A stretch of 64,000 bases of DNA from a plasmid, in sequence record NZ_CP031103.1; one strand, written 5' to 3'. The position numbers and the translations under genes were made by a program. Below the pieces are notes generated by a model. The model did not search any database and was not told the origin of the DNA. It worked only from the letters and a program-made list of their open reading frames with translations. Positions 4,087 through 32,770 of this stretch are shown here, in pieces. Each line of letters begins with the position of its first letter. Positions within the stretch are counted from its first letter, which is position 1.

Positions 4087-4289
4087 TATTATGTTCTCCT
4101 ATCGCTGTGTTACTTCAACCAACCTGTCTGCCAAAATTTTACAGAGCGCGGACTCAATTTTTTCTCTAGCCCGTCCTGCCAACAATACAATCTTAATGTA
4201 TTCAGTGCAGTATTAATTGCGATCCATGCCAGTCGCTGGGAAGAATCTTAGTCACAACACTAAAAAACGAGCAGGAACGTTTAAATAGG

Positions 4290-4430
4290 GTTTACTCAAA
4301 AACTCAAATGAGTAAAAACACATTTATTCATTTACACATTCATTGTGATGCGATAAGGTTGGCACTCAAAAACTCATAACAGTAAATACTCATTTACTCA
4401 TGAGAGTAAATGTAATGAAAAATGAGGCGC
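4290..4430. repeat. Partition-site (parC/parH-like) repeats upstream of parF
   Basis: Multiple ACTCA(A/T)TTAC and GTAAATGAGT motifs in direct and inverted orientation. Similar repeats recur at 5055-5100 and 5341-5390. Confidence 0.6.
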
Positions 4431-4433
4431 TAA

Positions 4434-5051
4434 ATGAAAGTTATCTCTTTTCTGAATCCTAAGGGCGGAAGCGGTAAAACTACCGTGACAATCAACGTTA
4501 GTACCAGCATTGCAAAAAAACATCGCGTAGCAGTTGTCGACACAGATCCACAGCAAAGCCTGGCTAACTGGAACAAAGCAGAAAAAGCAAACTTCGATGT
4601 TTTTACTGCAGCATCTGAGAAAGATGTCTATACCATCAGAAAAGAACTGGCGGACTATGACTATGTCATCATCGATGGTGCTGGCGCTCTTTCTGTTATA
4701 ACTGCAGCTGCTGTGATGGTTAGTGACTTGGTCATCATTCCGGTTACGCCGTCACCTCTTGATTTTTCTGCCTCGGGTGCAGTTATCAGTGTTCTTGAAG
4801 CACAGTCGTATAACAGACCGGTAGAATGCCGTTTCCTTATTACTCGCAAAATCGAGCAAGCAACAATGCTCACTGTGTTACGGGAAAGTATCGCTGCAAC
4901 AGGTATCGCTTCCTTAAAGACTGCAATCACGCAGCGGCAGAGCTACGTTAAATCTGTGCTTGATGGCGAAACTGTATTTGATACCAACGATGGTGCAGCG
5001 AAAGGCGAGATAGAAGTTCTGGCAGGTGAAATCCTCAAGTTAGTTGATTAA
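4434..5051 (+). CDS. parF: ParF-type (type Ib ParA) partition ATPase
   Basis: MKVISFLNPKGGSGKTT deviant Walker A. 205 aa, close to ParF of TP228. Confidence 0.9.
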   Translation: MKVISFLNPKGGSGKTTVTINVSTSIAKKHRVAVVDTDPQQSLANWNKAEKANFDVFTAASEKDVYTIRKELADYDYVIIDGAGALSVITAAAVMVSDLVIIPVTPSPLDFSASGAVISVLEAQSYNRPVECRFLITRKIEQATMLTVLRESIAATGIASLKTAITQRQSYVKSVLDGETVFDTNDGAAKGEIEVLAGEILKLVD

Positions 5052-5865: not shown

Positions 5866-6738
5866 ATGGAAAATTCTGAAGCGCAGCAAAGTCCTTTTGC
5901 TATCAACAAGAAAGATTCTGGAGAAAGTTATGAACTGACTCCGAACAGTAATAAGACAGTTCAGCCTGTAGCTCTGTTACGTCTTAGCGTGTTTACTCCT
6001 GTGTCGCCAAAGGAAAAGGGAAAACGCGATTTTCTGATTGATGCTTCTGAAGAACTATCCAGCCTGGAGGTGGCTCGACAGGAAGGCTATACCAACATCA
6101 AAATTCAGGGCGCAAAGCTCGGCATGTCAACTGACTTTAAAACCTGGATTGGCATCATTTCTGCTTTCTCCAAGTACGGATATACTGCGGATAAAATTTG
6201 TCTGCCGTTCTCTGAGTTTGCGAGGATGTGCGGCCTCCGGCCAACAGACATCAATGGGCGTGCCCGTAACCGGTTAAGTGAGGCGCTGTTTAATCTGTCC
6301 AGCGTTACTCTCTCGTTTCGTAGCCAGGATGGAAAGCGCAGCCTCGTTACCCACCTTGTGCAGCGTGCCCAGCTGGACATGGATACTAATATGGTCGAAT
6401 TAGTCGGTGACCCAAGCCTCTGGGAATTATATCGCTACGATCATAAGGTTCTGCTTGGTCTGAAAGCACTCTCGGCACTCTCACGTAAGGAGTCTGCTCA
6501 ATCTCTCTATGTCTATTTCGAAAGCATGCCAGCAGGTACGCTGTACGTCTCTATGAAGCGTCTACGTGAAAGGCTTGCTATGGAATCTCAGGTTAAAGAC
6601 CAGAATTCAACCATACGACGTGCGATGAAGGATCTGAAGGGCATTGGTTATCTTGATTACAACGAAACCAAAAAAGGTCGGGAAATCATGTTCATTGTTC
6701 ATAACCGCTCGCCGCGACTCGCGTTGACCGTCGCGTGA
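5866..6738 (+). CDS. repA: Iteron-binding replication initiator RepA (RepFIB-like)
   Basis: 290 aa, flanked on both sides by iterons, with a DnaA box and AT-rich region upstream. Confidence 0.8.
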   Translation: MENSEAQQSPFAINKKDSGESYELTPNSNKTVQPVALLRLSVFTPVSPKEKGKRDFLIDASEELSSLEVARQEGYTNIKIQGAKLGMSTDFKTWIGIISAFSKYGYTADKICLPFSEFARMCGLRPTDINGRARNRLSEALFNLSSVTLSFRSQDGKRSLVTHLVQRAQLDMDTNMVELVGDPSLWELYRYDHKVLLGLKALSALSRKESAQSLYVYFESMPAGTLYVSMKRLRERLAMESQVKDQNSTIRRAMKDLKGIGYLDYNETKKGREIMFIVHNRSPRLALTVA

Positions 6739-6739
6739 A

Positions 6740-6960
6740 GGCGGTCACATTCATAACAATGACGCTACAAGGCGGTCATATTCATAATATTCCAATTAAA
6801 AGCGGTCGTTTTCATAAGTGCAGTCTATTCTGAGGGCTTTACGCCGGTCAGATGAGCCGAGTTTTATGAACGCAGCGATACCTTATCTATGATCATGTTA
6901 TGAAAGTAACCGCCAGTTATGAATGCTCCCGCCCATTTATGATAGTGACCGCTTTCCGTT
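6740..6960. repeat. Downstream iterons (direct, plus inverted copies at 6895-6960)
   Basis: GGCGGTCACATTCATAAC, GGCGGTCATATTCATAAT and AGCGGTCGTTTTCATAAG, then inverted TTATGAAAGTAACCGCC and TTATGATAGTGACCGC. Confidence 0.7.
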
Positions 6961-6995
6961 GGATGTTAGTTAAGCCATTTTTAACGTGAACAAGG

Positions 6996-7763
6996 CTAAC
7001 GATTGCCGCGCAGGAGCTGCAGCGCATCCTGAGTATCGAGTGAGAACCGGACCTGCTGACTGGCGGCCACATCGAGCGCAAAAATTTTCGTATACACCTC
7101 AGTCGACTCAAACTTCTCGTGCCCCATCAGGCCCTGGAGAACCTTGGGATGAACATGGCCATATAACAGGTGCATCGCGAAGCTGTGTCTGAACGTGTGC
7201 GGGCTGACCGGAATACTGAATCTCACCCCGTCCCGTTCTGCTGCCTCGACGGCACGCTCAAGCCAGTTGCGCACCGTGCGGTCGGTAACGCCCCAGACCG
7301 GCATGGCCCGGCGTTCACCTGTTAGCTTGTCGTCCTCGAATCTTTCCCGCGTGCTCGCAAACAGCCGACGCATTTCATCCACGTATCCGGGATCTGACAG
7401 CGGGATCACCCGGTTCGCACTTTTTCCCTTTTTCGGGCGACCGCCAGCTGTGCGGCGTTGTTTAGCCGTACGGACCACCACGTGCGGGATCTCATCATTG
7501 AGGTGAAAGTCCCTTCTTCTGAGTGCCAGTGCTTCGTTGAGGCGTGCGCCGGTGTTCCACAGCGTGTTAATGAACGCGTGCTGGTTCCAGTCAGGAAGGT
7601 AATGCAGCAGGCCAGCCACTTCCGGCGCCAGAAGGTACTTCGGCATCTCGGTATAGTGCTTGGCCATTTCCCGTAGCGACAGTGCCCGTCCGTAGTCAAA
7701 CGGTGCAGAAGTGGCAGTCACCTGCAGGGCAGGGGAGTGATGAACAAAAGCGGGCAGATTCAT
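6996..7763 (-). CDS. Tyrosine site-specific recombinase (plasmid multimer-resolution or integrase type)
   Basis: The C-terminal catalytic region HTFRHSFAMHLL...GH...TEVY carries the tyrosine-recombinase R..HxxR..Y signature. Confidence 0.8.
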   Translation of the reverse strand: MNLPAFVHHSPALQVTATSAPFDYGRALSLREMAKHYTEMPKYLLAPEVAGLLHYLPDWNQHAFINTLWNTGARLNEALALRRRDFHLNDEIPHVVVRTAKQRRTAGGRPKKGKSANRVIPLSDPGYVDEMRRLFASTRERFEDDKLTGERRAMPVWGVTDRTVRNWLERAVEAAERDGVRFSIPVSPHTFRHSFAMHLLYGHVHPKVLQGLMGHEKFESTEVYTKIFALDVAASQQVRFSLDTQDALQLLRGNR

Positions 7764-8323
7764 AACGCTCCTGGCGATAAGGATGCGCTACGCAAAATCT
7801 GGCCCGATAACCCCCGTTAACCGTGTCATTTTTCACGTAGCGCAATCTGGTGAAGTTCTGGTGCCATTTTCGCCGCCGCCGGCGTCGGAAACCACGGAAA
7901 AAACCCGCAGAGCCGGGATCTCACATTTTCCTGTTTCTGGAAATATACCATAAAAAGGAAAGAGAAAGTCTGGCAGGACGATCTGAAAAGGATCCAAAAA
8001 GGATCCTTTTGCCCTGGATGATGTGGTGATTGGGTGGTGGAAAGGGCCATATGATGTGTTCTGTGACAAAATACCCCCGGTGAGGCAGTGCTTCCTGAAA
8101 ATACAGAAAGCGGAAAGGGGGCAGGAAGGAGACGCTATTGCAAAGCCGTCGCGAACCAGTCTGAGCTTACACCGACGTTCGGGGACGCTCTGTTATACGG
8201 GCGGAAGCAGGTAAAGTGGAAGGGAATGGAAGCGATTAATATTTATGTATGAACGCCGGATGTGAATTCTGTACTAAGATCATGATAAAACCAGCCCGTG
8301 GTGTTTTATCCGCCTGAGGATAA

Positions 8324-25175: not shown

Positions 25176-28148
25176 ATGCCACGCCGCTCAATCCTGTCCG
25201 CCACCGAGCGCGAAAGCCTGCTGGCACTGCCAGATGCCAAAGACGAACTGATACGGCACTACATGTTCAACGAAACCGACCTGTCGGTGATCCGTCAGCG
25301 TCGCGGCGCCGCGAATCGATTGGGCTTCGCTGTGCAGCTTTGCTACTTGCGATTCCCTGGCACCTTTTTGGGCGTCGATGAGCCTCCGTTTCCGCCCCTG
25401 TTGCGCATGGTGACCGCGCAACTCAAGATGCCAGTGGAAAGTTGGAGCGAGTACGGCCAGCGCGAACAGACACGGCGGGAGCACTTGGTCGAGCTGCAAA
25501 CGGTTTTTGGGTTCAAGCCCCTCACCATGAGCCACTATCGGCAAGCCGTGCATACATTGACCGAGCTGGCCTTGCAGACCGACAAAGGCATCGTGCTGGC
25601 GAGCGCACTTGTCGAGAATCTGCGGCGGCAGAGCATTATCCTGCCCGCCATGAATGCCATCGAGCGCGCAAGCGCCGAGGCCATCACCCGTGCCAACCGA
25701 CGCATTTACGCGGCGCTGACCGATTCTTTGTTATCACCCCACCGTCAGCGCCTGGACGAACTTCTCAAGCGCAAGGACGGCAGTAAAGTGACGTGGCTGG
25801 CATGGCTGCGCCAGTCGCCTGCCAAACCGAACTCTCGCCACATGCTCGAACATATTGAGCGCCTGAAATCCTGGCAAGCACTTGATCTGCCCGCAGGCAT
25901 CGAGCGGCAGGTTCACCAGAACCGCCTGCTCAAAATCGCTCGTGAAGGTGGCCAGATGACGCCTGCTGATCTGGCAAAGTTCGAGGTGCAACGACGCTAT
26001 GCCACGCTGGTAGCGCTGGCCATCGAAGGCATGGCCACCGTCACCGATGAAATCATCGACCTTCACGATCGCATCATCGGCAAGCTGTTCAACGCGGCCA
26101 AGAACAAGCATCAGCAGCAGTTCCAGGCTTCCGGCAAGGCGATCAACGACAAGGTGCGGATGTATGGGCGCATCGGTCAAGCGTTGATTGAGGCCAAGCA
26201 AAGCGGCAGCGATCCGTTCGCCGCCATCGAGGCCGTTATGCCCTGGGACACCTTCGCCGCCAGCGTCACCGAAGCGCAAACATTGGCGCGGCCTGCCGAC
26301 TTTGATTTCCTGCACCACATCGGTGAAAGCTATGCCACGCTACGCCGCTACGCGCCGCAGTTCCTGGGCGTGCTCAAATTGCGGGCTGCGCCCGCCGCCA
26401 AGGGTGTGCTCGATGCCATCGACATGCTGCGCGGCATGAACAGCGACAGCGCGCGCAAGGTGCCCGCCGATGCGCCAACCGCATTCATCAAGCCGCGCTG
26501 GGCAAAGCTGGTTCTGACCGACGACGGCATCGACCGGCGTTACTACGAGTTATGCGCCCTGTCGGAGCTGAAGAACGCGCTGCGCTCCGGTGATGTCTGG
26601 GTGCAGGGTTCTCGCCAGTTCAAGGACTTCGACGAATACCTGGTGCCGGTCGAGAAGTTCGCCACTTTGAAGCTGGCCAGCGAATTGCCGCTGGCAGTGG
26701 CCACCGACTGCGACCAATACCTGCATGACCGGTTGGAATTGTTGGAGGCGCAACTCGCCACAGTCAACCGCATGGCTGCGGCCAACGACTTACCGGATGC
26801 CATCATCACCACCGCGTCAGGCCTGAAGATCACGCCGCTGGACGCGGCAGTACCAGACGCCGCGCAAGCCATGATCGACCAGACAGCTATGCTGCTGCCG
26901 CACCTCAAAATCACCGAGTTGCTGATGGAGGTCGATGAATGGACGGGCTTCACCCGCCACTTCACACACCTGAAGACCAGCGACACGGCCAAGGACAAAA
27001 CCTTGCTGTTGACGACGATCCTGGCCGACGCGATCAACCTGGGTCTGACCAAAATGGCCGAGTCCTGCCCTGGCACCACCTACGCCAAGCTGTCTTGGCT
27101 GCAAGCCTGGCACATCCGCGATGAAACCTATTCGACGGCGCTGGCCGAGCTGGTGAATGCGCAGTTTCGGCAACCCTTCGCCGGCAACTGGGGTGACGGC
27201 ACCACGTCATCGTCGGACGGCCAGAACTTCAGAACCGGCAGCAAAGCAGAAAGCACTGGTCATATCAACCCGAAGTATGGAAGCAGTCCAGGACGGACTT
27301 TCTACACCCATATCTCCGACCAGTACGCGCCCTTCAGTGCCAAGGTGGTCAACGTGGGCATTCGTGATTCAACTTACGTGCTTGATGGCCTGCTGTACCA
27401 CGAGTCGGACTTGCGCATCGAGGAACACTACACCGACACGGCAGGCTTCACCGATCACGTGTTTGGCTTGATGCATTTGCTGGGATTTCGCTTCGCGCCG
27501 CGTATCCGTGACTTGGGCGAAACCAAGCTATTCATCCCCAAGGGCGATGCCGCCTATGACGCGCTCAAGCCGATGATTAGCAGCGACAGGCTGAACATCA
27601 AGCAAATACGCGCCCATTGGGATGAAATTCTGCGGCTGGCCACCTCCATCAAGCAAGGCACGGTAACGGCTTCGCTGATGCTGCGCAAACTCGGCAGCTA
27701 CCCGCGCCAGAACGGCTTGGCCGTGGCGTTGCGCGAGCTGGGGCGCATCGAGCGCACGCTGTTCATTTTGGATTGGCTGCAAAGCGTGGAGCTGCGCCGC
27801 CGCGTCCATGCGGGGCTGAATAAGGGCGAGGCGCGCAACGCGCTGGCCAGGGCGGTCTTCTTCTACCGATTGGGTGAAATCCGCGACCGCAGTTTTGAGC
27901 AGCAGCGCTACCGGGCCAGCGGCCTCAATCTGGTGACGGCGGCCATCGTGTTGTGGAACACGGTATATCTGGAGCGTGCCACCAGTGCTTTGCGTGGCAA
28001 CGGCACGGCGCTGGACGACACATTGTTGCAATATCTGTCGCCGCTGGGGTGGGAGCACATCAACCTGACCGGCGATTACCTATGGCGCAGCAGCGCCAAG
28101 GTCGGTGCGGGGAAGTTTAGGCCATTGCGACCGCTGCCACCGGCTTAG
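25176..28148 (+). CDS. tnpA: Tn3-family transposase TnpA
   Basis: 990 aa. Its stop lies immediately before IRtnp. Confidence 0.95.
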
Positions 28149-28160
28149 CGTGCTTTATTT

Positions 28161-29487
28161 AATGAGATGGTCACTCCCTCCTTCCCGGTACTATGCTGAG
28201 GACAGGCTTTCATTCGGAGAACTATCATGGAAAACATTGCGCTCATTGGTATCGATCTGGGTAAAAACTCTTTCCATATTCATTGCCAGGATCGTCGCGG
28301 GAAGGCTGTTTACCGTAAAAAATTTACCCGGCCAAAGTTGATCGAATTTTTGGCGACATGCCCCGCTACAACCATCGCAATGGAAGCCTGTGGCGGTTCT
28401 CACTTTATGGCACGCAAGTTGGAAGAGTTGGGGCATTCCCCAAAGCTGATATCACCACAATTTGTCCGCCCGTTCGTTAAAAGCAATAAAAACGACTTTG
28501 TCGACGCCGAAGCTATTTGTGAAGCTGCATCGCGTCCGTCTATGCGTTTTGTGCAGCCCAGAACGGAATCTCAGCAGGCAATGCGGGCTCTGCATCGTGT
28601 CCGTGAATCCCTGGTTCAGGATAAGGTAAAAACAACCAATCAAATGCATGCTTTTCTGCTGGAATTTGGCATTAGCGTTCCCCGAGGAGCTGCCGTTATT
28701 AGCCGACTGAGTACCATTCTTGAGGATAATAGTTTGCCTCTTTACCTCAGCCAGTTATTGCTGAAATTACAACAGCATTATCACTATCTTGTTGAGCAGA
28801 TTAAAGATTTGGAATCCCAGTTGAAACGAAAGTTGGACGAAGATGAGGTTGGACAGCGCTTGCTGAGCATTCCCTGCGTCGGAACACTGACAGCGAGTAC
28901 TATTTCAACTGAGATTGGCGACGGGAAGCAGTACGCCAGCAGCCGTGACTTTGCGGCGGCAACAGGGCTTGTACCTCGGCAGTACAGCACGGGAGGTAGG
29001 ACGACATTGCTGGGAATTAGTAAGCGAGGTAATAAAAAGATCCGAACTTTGTTGGTTCAATGTGCCAGGGTATTCATACAAAAACTGGAACACCAGTCTG
29101 GCAAATTGGCCGATTGGGTCAGGGATTTACTGTGCCGGAAAAGCAACTTTGTCGTCACTTGTGCTCTGGCAAACAAGCTGGCCAGAATAGCCTGGGCCCT
29201 AACGGCACGACAGCAAACTTATGTAGCATAACGGCAGAAATACACCGGTTTAAAGAATTACTGATCTGGTTTTGCGAATACTGATATTGATGATACTAAC
29301 GGCCCACCGGCCTGTTGAGGAACCTGTAAAACGGAAAGGCTCATTGAAGCCGTATATTTTCTGGAGGTTCATCAGGCGCGGAACTCATCAAGGCGCGGGA
29401 ATAAAATCCCATTCAGACGCCGGATAGATTCAAGCAAGCCAACTTGTCGTCAAAATCGGTGTTGCAAAAACGGGAGTGACCATAGAT
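28161..29487 (+). mobile_element. IS110-family IS (IS4321/IS5075-like, 1327 bp) inserted at the characteristic position inside the 38-bp IRtnp
   Basis: The 38-bp inverted repeat is split at CTTTATTT|TCCG. This size and target are characteristic of IS4321/IS5075. Confidence 0.85.
28227..29231 (+). CDS. IS110-family transposase (DEDD)
   Basis: 334 aa beginning MENIALIGIDLGKNSFHIHCQD, an N-terminal RuvC-like DEDD domain. Confidence 0.9.
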   Translation: MENIALIGIDLGKNSFHIHCQDRRGKAVYRKKFTRPKLIEFLATCPATTIAMEACGGSHFMARKLEELGHSPKLISPQFVRPFVKSNKNDFVDAEAICEAASRPSMRFVQPRTESQQAMRALHRVRESLVQDKVKTTNQMHAFLLEFGISVPRGAAVISRLSTILEDNSLPLYLSQLLLKLQQHYHYLVEQIKDLESQLKRKLDEDEVGQRLLSIPCVGTLTASTISTEIGDGKQYASSRDFAAATGLVPRQYSTGGRTTLLGISKRGNKKIRTLLVQCARVFIQKLEHQSGKLADWVRDLLCRKSNFVVTCALANKLARIAWALTARQQTYVA

Positions 29488-29936
29488 TCCGTTTTCTGAG
29501 ACGACCCCTACACGCTCGTAAGCGGCCCTGACGGCCCGCATAACGCGGAGATACGCCCCGACTGCGGCTCTGCCTTGTCGGGACCACTCCGACCGCGCAC
29601 AGAAGCACCTGAGTCGCTACAGGCGGGTATGGCTTATCAGGGCGAAGGGATGGATTGGTGGAAACTATCAACTCTGTAGCCGGCTTCGCCGGGTGACGGC
29701 GCCATTCAGTAGCAGAGACATCCTCAGCAACTGCTGGCGCCTCCATGCGCCTGCAGCGCATCACAAACCCACCATATTTATACTTTTAAATCATGAGATT
29801 ATTGATCCTCAGGATGATTTAATGCGATATGCTCACCGGCGTGACCTGGTGAAAGCGTCACCACCTTCAGTAAACCGTTTCGTCCGGGCGGCCTTAAGCA
29901 TCACCTGATTCTGGCTCGCCTGGTAAACCCGTATCG

Positions 29937-30950
29937 ATGAACTGCAGAAAGGAGTTGCCTGTGGCAGATAATTCAGGAAGGAGAGGTTCTGTTGAAATAC
30001 CCGAGATCGTCAGAGCACCGGCATGGCGCAGGGTTCTTGACTGGTCGCGTGAGGAGCTGCTGCACCGCCTTGGGCAGCCGGCAGGGCTTGAACGAGTAAT
30101 AAAAACCGGCGTGCTGGTTCCCTGTTCCATAACACCACCTGCGGATACGTTCTGGACACGGTCAGTAACCGCCTGGGATACGTGGCTGGATCCTTCATCT
30201 TCTTATTTTGCCCGCCCCTATACGCTTGATTACCGTAAACCCGACGGCACAGGCCATCTTGAAGGGCATCTGATTACGATCCCGGAGGCTGAAAATCTTA
30301 TTCAGGAAGAGACAATTCACGATTTTCAGTGTGACATCAGTTTACTGAGAGGGATGTCCAGTTCGAAATCAGAGAGCCATAACATCACCGATATTAACGA
30401 TCTTGCGGTGCTGCGCAGTCCCGAACTGGCCGAACCCGTCACCCCGGAACATCTTCAGGAGAATATGTCTCATGGCGGGTTGCGCCTCGATCAGATGCGG
30501 TTTGCGGAGTATCCGTGGTCTGAACGCCGGTACTACTGGCACAATAACGACGGCTCCCATCATTTCAGCGCTGCCCGCTATCAGGCTGGTCGCCTGCAGC
30601 AGCCTGTTCCGCTGACAGGGGCGCTGCGCCGCTACAGTGTGAATGTGCAGATGGTGCCTGTATTGCGTAACAAATGGCAGATGTTTGTGATCCCGAAGGA
30701 AGAACTGTTCGGCAGTTTTTATGAATCAATGAAAGCCTTTGAAAGCCCGTTTGCCTGGTCAGCGTTACCTGAGAACATGCACGATCCGAGGACGAGTGGC
30801 ACAGAGTTGTGCATCGTATGGCTGGAAAGGGATAATGCCAGAGCATGTTCCGCGGCAAACGTTCTGGCCAGATATGGATTCCCGGACTTCGGCGAGATGC
30901 TGACAGAACTTGCCAGATACGGGCAAAGGGATTCAGTGCTGGCCGGTTAG
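29937..30950 (+). CDS. Hypothetical 337-aa protein (possible partner of the downstream ART-like protein)
   Basis: Long ORF with no motif I can recognise. The true start may be an internal Met. Confidence 0.4.
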   Translation: MNCRKELPVADNSGRRGSVEIPEIVRAPAWRRVLDWSREELLHRLGQPAGLERVIKTGVLVPCSITPPADTFWTRSVTAWDTWLDPSSSYFARPYTLDYRKPDGTGHLEGHLITIPEAENLIQEETIHDFQCDISLLRGMSSSKSESHNITDINDLAVLRSPELAEPVTPEHLQENMSHGGLRLDQMRFAEYPWSERRYYWHNNDGSHHFSAARYQAGRLQQPVPLTGALRRYSVNVQMVPVLRNKWQMFVIPKEELFGSFYESMKAFESPFAWSALPENMHDPRTSGTELCIVWLERDNARACSAANVLARYGFPDFGEMLTELARYGQRDSVLAG

Positions 30951-31138
30951 TTGTCGCTTTTTTGCTTCTTCCGCCAGGCTGAAAGTTCTGTACATCCCTT
31001 ACGGCCATGGGTTTTCGCTAAATGGAACTAAATTATCCTAAGTTATTCTCAATGTAGGATAATTTCCGAATTCCGGGCGGACCCCAGTTAGCATATCGTC
31101 ACGGAGTGCATGGCTCCTCTTAACAGAAGGTATATTCA

Positions 31139-31669
31139 GTGCAGCTTTTCCACGGAACCCGGCAGCGCTTTGACAGATTTGATGTCTCATTCTGGGGGAC
31201 CGGTGAGGCCGGCAGTATCAACGCCTGCTGGTTTACCGATAACTTTAAAGGGGCTTGCAATCATGCCTTGTTAAAAAACAGGAACCCCGGAAATCCGTTG
31301 GTTTACCGGTGCACATTGAAGAAAGGCTGCGTTATCGCAAATCATCGCCAGCTGCTTTCTGAGCAACCTGATATTGCATCACGTCTCAGGACTGGTCTGC
31401 CCGTAAGTATCAGCAGCCAGCTAGGCAGGGGACTGGACTGGCACGCCCTGAATGAACCCCGGTATACATATTGCAAAGGAAGTCTGATTTACGAGGGAAA
31501 CCGCCACGTAGAGCCCGCTGAACTAATCAGCCTGTATTTGTCATGTGGTATTCAGGGGGTGTATGACTGGGAGGGTATCTTTACAGACAGCTATCTGCAC
31601 GGGACGACGACTGTAATATTCGATACGGATGTGCTCGATATTCAGGAAGTTGTTGAGGTGCAGTTCTGA
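31139..31669 (+). CDS. Putative ADP-ribosyltransferase-fold protein (diphtheria-toxin-like H-Y-E signature)
   Basis: N-terminal LFHGT (compare DT YHGT His21) then WFTDNFKG (compare DT FYSTDNKY) 26 residues later. A candidate catalytic Glu sits in IYEG at about residue 119. 176 aa. Confidence 0.4.
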   Translation: MQLFHGTRQRFDRFDVSFWGTGEAGSINACWFTDNFKGACNHALLKNRNPGNPLVYRCTLKKGCVIANHRQLLSEQPDIASRLRTGLPVSISSQLGRGLDWHALNEPRYTYCKGSLIYEGNRHVEPAELISLYLSCGIQGVYDWEGIFTDSYLHGTTTVIFDTDVLDIQEVVEVQF

Positions 31670-32118
31670 ACCTCAACCTTCGCGCAACGAGGCTTGCCGA
31701 CGCTCATAGCGGTCAATGCCTGCCGCGAACGCTGGCCAAATGGCTGTGCTTTTTCCGGAGCATCGATGCTGTTCAGCCTACTTGTGCAGAACAGCACATG
31801 ATTTAATTTTTGTCATCGCAATCTGTGGTCACGATCATTCGTGTTCTTAGCCAGTCCCGGGATGCAGCCTGGCATGAACCCTGGAAATAAATGACCAAAC
31901 TTATGATTATAATTTGCTTTAATTATCAATGGCTTAGTTCGCGTAATCTGTCTTATGTTAAATTTAGTCCGTCGCTCATTTATTTTATACCCGACCGCAG
32001 ACTACGATTAGTCATACACAGATATACTCTTTCATTTAGTTTAAAAAAACGCTCCCTATCAGGAGCGTAAGCCAGTAACTTCGGCGTCAAATGAGGGTCT
32101 AACAAGTGGAGCTGCGGG

Positions 32119-32553
32119 TTAATTCTGGGTGATCTGACTGCGATGTTTATCAGCCTGCTGCTGGTGAACAACGGAAGACTGACCATTATTCGCCTTCTCA
32201 TGCACAACTGCGGCCTTCTCATGCTCGCTCATTTCAGAAAATGACTTTGCTGTTTCGTTGGTAGCTCCTGGTTTAGCTTTCATCATTTTTTTATGCATTT
32301 CAGCCATATCCTGGTGGGCAGCAGAATTGCTGTTTTGCATCATGTCATGGGACATTGCGGCCTGATCGTGACTGCTCATATCCATCATTGTCATGCTGTC
32401 TCCCTGAATTGCACTTTTTTCAGCAGATGACTGCATCTGGTGGGCAGGTGCCTGTGCATTATTTACCTGGTCATGCATGTTCATTGTCTCTGCAGCCATG
32501 GCAGATGAAGCGGCAGCCATAATGGCAACAAATGATACAAGGATCTTTTTCAT
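32119..32553 (-). CDS. pcoE: PcoE periplasmic copper-binding protein
   Basis: Signal peptide MKKILVSFVAIMAAASSAMA. Met/His-rich with MxxH and HxxM repeats. Confidence 0.85.
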   Translation of the reverse strand: MKKILVSFVAIMAAASSAMAAETMNMHDQVNNAQAPAHQMQSSAEKSAIQGDSMTMMDMSSHDQAAMSHDMMQNSNSAAHQDMAEMHKKMMKAKPGATNETAKSFSEMSEHEKAAVVHEKANNGQSSVVHQQQADKHRSQITQN

Positions 32554-32770
32554 GGTTGGGTCTCCGGTGTTTTCATACCCAAACAATCAACGGCTTATGA
32601 CAGAGAAAGCATTTGATCTCAGGGCGGGTTATTCATCACTCCAGGAACCAGGTGATTGCGTTATCACCCTGCTCCTGATTTATGAATGATTATAAAAAAC
32701 CGCATCTGTTTATCGCGTGACTGGATGATGACAATTTTGTCACCTTCCAGGTTTCTCCTGAATAACGGAG

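Follow-up and report, generated by a model that had tools for sequence, protein, structure and literature searches.

The window analyzed here, a 64,000-nucleotide stretch of plasmid DNA (sequence record NZ_CP031103.1; positions count from its first letter), carries two neighboring plus-strand genes between a Tn21-type transposon end and pcoE. The upstream gene (29937 to 30950, ATG start) encodes a 337-residue protein of the DUF6685 family. The downstream gene (31139 to 31669, GTG start) encodes a 176-residue protein with the N terminus MQLFHGT, which we assign to the ADP-ribosyltransferases (ARTs) as a divergent member of the ART-PolyVal/Tox-ART-HYD2 group. A 188-bp intergenic spacer (30951 to 31138) separates the two, and sequence inspection revealed an AGAAGG element resembling a Shine-Dalgarno sequence 8 nt 5′ of the ART GTG codon. 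A first-pass annotation, made from the letters alone, had delimited both open reading frames (ORFs) as they are found and described them as an unannotatable two-gene cassette ending in a diphtheria-toxin-like ART, possibly a toxin with its immunity or regulator partner or else an effector of defense or anti-defense. The word "unannotatable" fits the 176-residue product, a "hypothetical protein" in RefSeq, but not its neighbor, which RefSeq labels "DUF6685 family protein." Neither product gave a useful match in NCBIfam, PADLOC, or PHROGs.

Searching Pfam with the 176-residue protein returned a single, sub-threshold match, to ART-PolyVal (PF18760; E = 2.4e-4, 22.3 bits, residues 2 to 51). The same domain was matched at E < 0.01 by 34 of the 34 aligned members of the protein's family, each time below threshold; the best E-value in this set was 1.8e-6, and the four members whose scores were inspected reached 19 to 26 bits. 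As a canonical reference, we built a profile from 11 ART domains excised from polyvalent proteins. Aligned with it by hhalign, the 34-member family gave a probability of 99.3% and an E-value of 1.8e-20 over 165 columns. The solo and polyvalent ARTs have in common the motifs FHG[ST]xxxFxxFD, GTGE, G-x-[WY]-F-[TA], A-x-x-[HY]-A, VY, PLSEQP, GIxG, and VxFD. The AlphaFold2 model of the 176-residue protein has a mean confidence (predicted local distance difference test, pLDDT) of 91.9, and the ART fold that was looked for in this protein was found. Because the Pfam matches extend across the family and the profile alignment leads to the ART domains of polyvalent proteins, the earlier call of an ART fold was correct, and the protein almost certainly belongs, as judged from its sequence, to the ART-PolyVal family. 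The comparison with diphtheria toxin held in part: the fold is that of the clade containing diphtheria toxin and PARPs, but the protein is not a member of the diphtheria toxin family and belongs with ART-PolyVal/Tox-ART-HYD2. More precisely, it falls in the H-Y-[EDQ] (or H-Y-[D/E]) clade formed by Tox-ART-HYD2 and ART-PolyVal, within the superclade shared with diphtheria toxin and PARPs. The ART of polyvalent proteins has been described as carrying a His on strand 1, a Tyr on strand 2, and an Asp on strand 5, and was placed in the Tox-ART-HYD2 clade as kin to PARPs and the diphtheria and cholix toxins (Iyer et al. 2017, PMC5512222).

Homologues of the 176-residue protein are few. We found 38 among 5.8 billion proteins, all of about 175 to 205 residues and hosted mainly by Enterobacter, Leclercia, Klebsiella, Erwinia, Serratia, Rahnella, and Pantoea. 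When 1.84 billion representative proteins were searched exhaustively with a profile, only 84 matched at E ≤ 0.001; the more distant of these are giant multidomain proteins of 762 to 2413 residues, in which the domain occurs once or several times. The family is a small solo branch, previously undescribed, of a domain family that is computationally defined and experimentally untouched. Hidden Markov model searches of the PDB sequences with the close and wider profiles of the 176-residue family, and with the DUF6685 profile, returned noise alone, and the canonical ART-PolyVal protein P0144 had no match among PDB sequences either. An ART-PolyVal domain within the PDB chain 9k3a_B was unconfirmed by sequence, and the A4 phage paper makes no mention of an ART.

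The two N-terminal motifs singled out in the first-pass annotation proved to be real, conserved strands of this family. H5 (codon 31151-31153), in the strand-1 motif MQLFHGT, is invariant in the 34 close homologues, in a wider alignment reaching down to 19 to 37% identity, and in the canonical polyvalent ART domains. The strand-2 motif WFTDNFKG spans residues 31 to 38 and begins 26 residues past H5; the close set shows no variation at W31 (codon 31229-31231) or F32 and next to none at T33, D34, and N35. Also invariant among the close homologues are G6, R8, H42, Y56, W144, and E145, and the wider alignment keeps H5, G6, G22, E23, A39, H42, Y56, and G137 without exception. At column 31 of the wider alignment, most sequences have an aromatic residue (W, Y, F, or H), E and S occur in one sequence each, and the canonical domains have Y. 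H42 (codon 31262-31264) lies 11 residues after W31 and is paired by hhalign with a consensus Tyr of the canonical domains. The same spacing of 11 residues separates Y54 from Y65 in diphtheria toxin and Y896 from Y907 in PARP1. On these alignments, H5 would be the counterpart of the strand-1 His and W31 that of the strand-2 Tyr, while H42 would take the place of the second Tyr, the one that stacks on nicotinamide. The catalytic glutamate had been sought at E119 in IYEG (residues 117 to 120), a column that varies among the 34 homologues (S, Q, L, V, T, M, and others); it is E145 (codon 31571-31573) that is conserved instead. This residue, in YDWEG, follows the initial GIxG glycine by 8 residues and precedes the VxFD phenylalanine by 16 in ungapped spacing, just like the Asp of canonical domains such as P0128, and column 145 holds E, D, or Q except in the four most divergent sequences, whose alignment is unreliable. 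We infer E145 to be the leading candidate for the catalytic acid and H5-W31-H42-E145 to be the putative active site.

The proposed pairing of the two genes as toxin and immunity partner failed when we examined their co-occurrence, for which we used 21 fetched loci (17 with an ART homologue) together with plasmid counts, a basis that falls short of a full census because a scan of genome contigs yielded just 8 loci. DUF6685 stands beside the ART in two of the 17 ART loci (L001 and L003), both from Leclercia and at least 96% identical to the window, and four of the 21 loci have DUF6685 and no ART. By tblastn, ART homologues occur on 93 of the 72,556 plasmids in PLSDB, from enterobacteria and Vibrio, and DUF6685 occurs on 895 (about 1.2%), being roughly ten times commoner on plasmids that have no ART. 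A DNA query spanning both genes matched one plasmid at 80% or more, Leclercia p16005813A (locus L001), and the pair was present in none of 5,426 complete Escherichia coli genomes. Among the ART neighbors at the loci examined, we saw no macrodomain, ARH, or antitoxin gene, and the small ORFs near the ART had no family matches. The ART and DUF6685 are thus very probably not a pair. DUF6685 is an unrelated and far more widespread plasmid gene that became a chance neighbor of the ART in one Leclercia-type backbone.

The ART, for its part, is autonomous plasmid cargo that moves between backbones by itself and has no recurrent partner; at the fetched loci, its neighbors change with each backbone. 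In Dot/Icm-type plasmids of Serratia, Pluralibacter, and Erwinia (L006, L007, L018, and L019), it follows the nikA-nikB relaxase genes, starting 14 nt after the nikB-type stop codon, and co-transcription with the relaxase is plausible there. These loci also have DUF5983, DUF932, and nikA upstream, and a PLD-family nuclease with Dot/Icm-type transfer genes on the opposite strand. A solitary copy comes after repE in Klebsiella. In Erwinia, another lies between parM-stbB and umuDC, close to an orphan methylase and to leading-region genes of the ArdA type. In Enterobacter (L011, pEho7-2, 6001 to 8045; L005), the gene for a 205-residue form shares 47 nt with a DUF6710 gene, after which comes DUF4225, possibly as an operon. 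The 205-residue form owes its length to a C-terminal extension; with DUF6710-DUF4225 it recurs in about 28 Enterobacter plasmids, an arrangement absent from the window. On p16005813A, the interval from the relaxase to DUF6685 holds a gene with the PBECR2 nuclease fold (4100 to 4615), another domain first described from polyvalent proteins. The same plasmid encodes a RES-family NAD+ phosphorylase 4 kb downstream of the ART, in a region rich in conflict-type genes. In a metagenome-assembled Enterobacter genome (L009, 8001 to 8516), tblastn recovers the ART homologue as four separate pieces, which probably reflects either a pseudogene or a misassembly.

The 337-residue protein matches Pfam DUF6685 (PF20390) with 179.9 bits against a threshold of 24.6 (E = 7e-53). 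The family alignment shows two conserved motifs, D-I-x(6)-S-S-S-K-S and N-x-x-G-S-H-H-F-x-A-A-R, and because homologues begin about 8 codons later, the GTG at 29961 is a possible alternative start. Its AlphaFold2 model is confident (pLDDT 88). The immunity fold suggested for this protein was not there: we saw no macrodomain, ARH, or known antitoxin fold in the model. DUF6685 has no relative of solved structure and no match among PDB sequences. A Foldseek search of the model against viral models gave weak matches alone, many of ParB/sulfiredoxin type, and a direct comparison with sulfiredoxin lent no support to such a kinship. In the library of papers searched, none mentions DUF6685. Where it occurs alone, the gene adjoins repA (IncI-gamma/K), ars, mer, or orphan methylase genes. 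Three unrelated plasmids have a metal-resistance module 200 to 430 bp upstream of DUF6685, namely the mer transposon end in the window (29508/29510), merR in p707804-1FII (L002, 4799 to 5012), and arsR in L016 (4695 to 4986), and the region upstream of the gene may be a recurrent insertion site. Because DUF6685 is present on so many PLSDB plasmids, has two strong motifs, and lacks a relative of solved fold, it is a reasonable study target in its own right.

The surroundings of the two genes record how they came to lie together. Homology to p16005813A extends from 29510 to about 31780 (2.27 kb). On the left, this fragment abuts the outer 22 bp (29487 to 29508) of a Tn21-family 38-bp terminal inverted repeat (…TTCCGTTTTCTGAGACGACCCC), whose inner part is found at 28144 to 28160. 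The repeat is split by an IS4321/IS5075-like insertion with an IS110-family transposase ORF (28227 to 29231), annotated IS4321/IS5075 in matching plasmids; such splitting is the classic behavior of these elements, which target terminal inverted repeats. On the right, the fragment ends inside an internal remnant of a thermonuclease (SNase) gene (31693 to 31779, minus strand), whose 29 codons correspond to residues 64 to 92 of about 176 and show 90% identity by tblastn to the thermonuclease of p707804-1FII. The remnant is truncated on both sides, by the junction with the pco-flanking DNA and by the start of the ART segment; pcoE itself lies beyond it (32119 to 32586, minus strand). On p707804-1FII, DUF6685 abuts an intact thermonuclease gene and there is no ART, and we therefore conclude that the ART segment of about 740 bp was gained separately, replacing the 3′ part of the nuclease gene. 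Relative to p16005813A, the spacer has 13 extra bases (31004 to 31016), and the window ART lacks one codon near the C terminus (31661 to 31663; 176 versus 177 residues). Scanning the DUF6685-ART spacer for consensus promoters found none, and scans for promoters, terminators, and repeats from 28.1 to 32.2 kb gave nothing relevant to the genes above shuffled expectation. The 2.27-kb fragment is a remnant of a Leclercia/Enterobacter plasmid backbone trapped between the Tn21-type end and the pco/sil island. The earlier view of the genes as mobile cargo at a junction of modules is thereby borne out, with the Tn21-type repeat on the left and pco-flanking DNA on the right. The locus is passenger scrap, irrelevant to the mercury and copper/silver resistance modules on either side of it.

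Taken together, we consider it probable that the downstream gene encodes a solo plasmid ART dependent on nicotinamide adenine dinucleotide (NAD+) and not paired with DUF6685. The enzyme would transfer ADP-ribose from NAD+ to a specific macromolecule of the host, the recipient cell, or a competing element, in the manner of T4 Alt or AcrIF11, and the modification would favor establishment or maintenance of the plasmid; the protein would not be a self-poisoning toxin requiring a cognate immunity protein. A host-modifying role has been proposed for the ARTs of polyvalent proteins and shown for T4 Alt (PMC5512222), and modification of its target has been shown for AcrIF11 (PMC12421852). By analogy with these, a host- or defense-modifying role is a tentative proposal for the window protein. 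It is more doubtful still whether the "H-W-H-E" family represents a new enzymatic effector of anti-defense or host takeover on conjugative and mobilizable plasmids, parallel to AcrIF11 with a different target, the nikAB-linked copies perhaps being co-expressed or translocated with the relaxase.

That DUF6685 and the ART form a two-gene cassette after all, of toxin and immunity protein or of effector and regulator, is highly improbable. In favor of it, the window and two Leclercia records show the genes side by side in one orientation with 188 bp between them, and both are uncharacterized plasmid cargo; however, the adjacency is confined to those near-identical Leclercia loci among the 17, the plasmid counts (93, 895, and 1 for the joint query) are far apart, DUF6685 stands alone beside repA, ars, mer, or methylase genes, and the SNase remnant shows that the ART segment was inserted at a pre-existing junction of DUF6685 and SNase. 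An ART that, like DarT, ParT, or RES, acts as the toxin of a toxin-antitoxin, abortive-infection, or defense system, with an antidote encoded elsewhere, variable (DUF6710, for example), or lost in the window, appears unlikely. Relatives in the Tox-ART-HYD2 clade do occur in polymorphic toxins and in a class of toxin-antitoxin systems (Iyer et al., PMC5512222), and the 47-nt overlap of the 205-residue homologue with DUF6710 in Enterobacter plasmids is operon-like, but no partner recurs across the contexts, PADLOC gave no match, and solitary intact copies on many plasmids, such as the one after repE, are hard to square with an unneutralized toxin.

Homology specifically to ART-PolyVal also leaves very little probability for a transferase acting on small molecules or nucleic acids, whether an Arr-like antibiotic ADP-ribosyltransferase or a Tpt1/KptA-like RNA 2′-phosphotransferase. 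There is no Pfam match to Arr or PTS_2-RNA even at E ≤ 10, Arr and Tpt1 align over 77 to 84 residues only, and the ART is flanked by backbone remnants and is not a gene cassette. An inactive pseudo-enzyme, or a functionless decaying remnant in the window, is rather improbable as well. W31 and H42 replace canonical Tyr residues, the backbone fragment that holds the gene is truncated and gave no promoter match, and one metagenomic homologue (L009) is fragmented; yet the ORF is full length, intact plasmids carry copies with 96 to 99% identity to it, conservation of the first His, the aromatic residue, the second His, and the acid extends to widely diverged relatives, and a similar H-F-H-D substitution is active in AcrIF11.

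Several observations weigh against the solo NAD+-dependent ART that we favor. The Pfam score of the 176-residue protein falls short of the PF18760 gathering threshold (22.3 versus 31.2 bits), and the Pfam alignment is confined to the N-terminal 50 residues. A Trp in place of the strand-2 Tyr and a His in place of the second Tyr depart from the expected site, although, judged from the residues, NAD+ binding is plausible. The catalytic acid is ambiguous and its assignment to E145 is provisional, since hhalign opens a gap and sets D150 opposite the canonical Asp and since D143 is likewise well conserved. As decaying backbone scrap with no recognizable promoter, the window copy may be unexpressed. 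Neither any member of the 176-residue subfamily nor, as far as we found, any ART-PolyVal domain has a known enzymatic activity, target, or phenotype. Finally, sequence homology to AcrIF11 was sought with a profile built from the AcrIF11Pae2 sequence given in the methods of PMC12421852 and 82 homologues, and none emerged: hhalign gave a probability of 6.3% over the N-terminal 57 columns and BLASTP no match. We therefore regard AcrIF11 as a functional and structural analogue within the broad clade and not as a demonstrable sequence relative.

There are few enzymatic anti-defense proteins that act sub-stoichiometrically, and of the ARTs among them AcrIF11 has been studied best. If the proposed role is true, the 176-residue family would be a second solo ART family, unrelated to AcrIF11 in sequence and present on clinically relevant resistance plasmids of Enterobacter, Klebsiella, and Leclercia. 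It would offer a concrete and cheaply testable candidate for the modification of recipient cells by plasmids, as well as the first experimental handle on the large ART-PolyVal domain family.

Set against known systems, the window ART has no conserved adjacent partner, in contrast to the DarTG, ParST, and RES-Xre pairs, and no partner with a macrodomain, ARH, or antitoxin fold. T4 Alt, ModA, and ModB serve as a conceptual model only, that of an ART by which an invading element reprograms host proteins; they belong to the R-S-E clade and have no sequence homology to the window ART. The catalytic domains of diphtheria toxin and PARPs are 13 to 14% identical to the window protein and give no Pfam match to it. 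Translocation and receptor domains like those of diphtheria toxin are absent, W31 and H42 replace the two Tyr residues of the H-Y-Y-E site, and E119 is not the equivalent of E148. Compared with ART-PolyVal, the window protein is a single domain of 176 residues and not part of a giant multidomain protein, has Trp for the strand-2 Tyr, His for the following Tyr, and Glu for Asp, and contains an extra insert of β-hairpin and helix at about residues 69 to 135. AcrIF11 (PDB 6KYF and 8DWQ), an anti-CRISPR ART that blocks type I-F CRISPR through ADP-ribosylation of Cas8f and is found on phages and plasmids, overlaps with the window family in host genera but belongs to a different family, and no aca-type regulator was found near the ART, where the small neighboring ORFs lack family matches. 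The active site of AcrIF11Pae1 is reported to be H-F-H-D and not the canonical H-Y-Y-E (PMC12421852), and it is this site that the putative H-W-H-E site of the window protein resembles.

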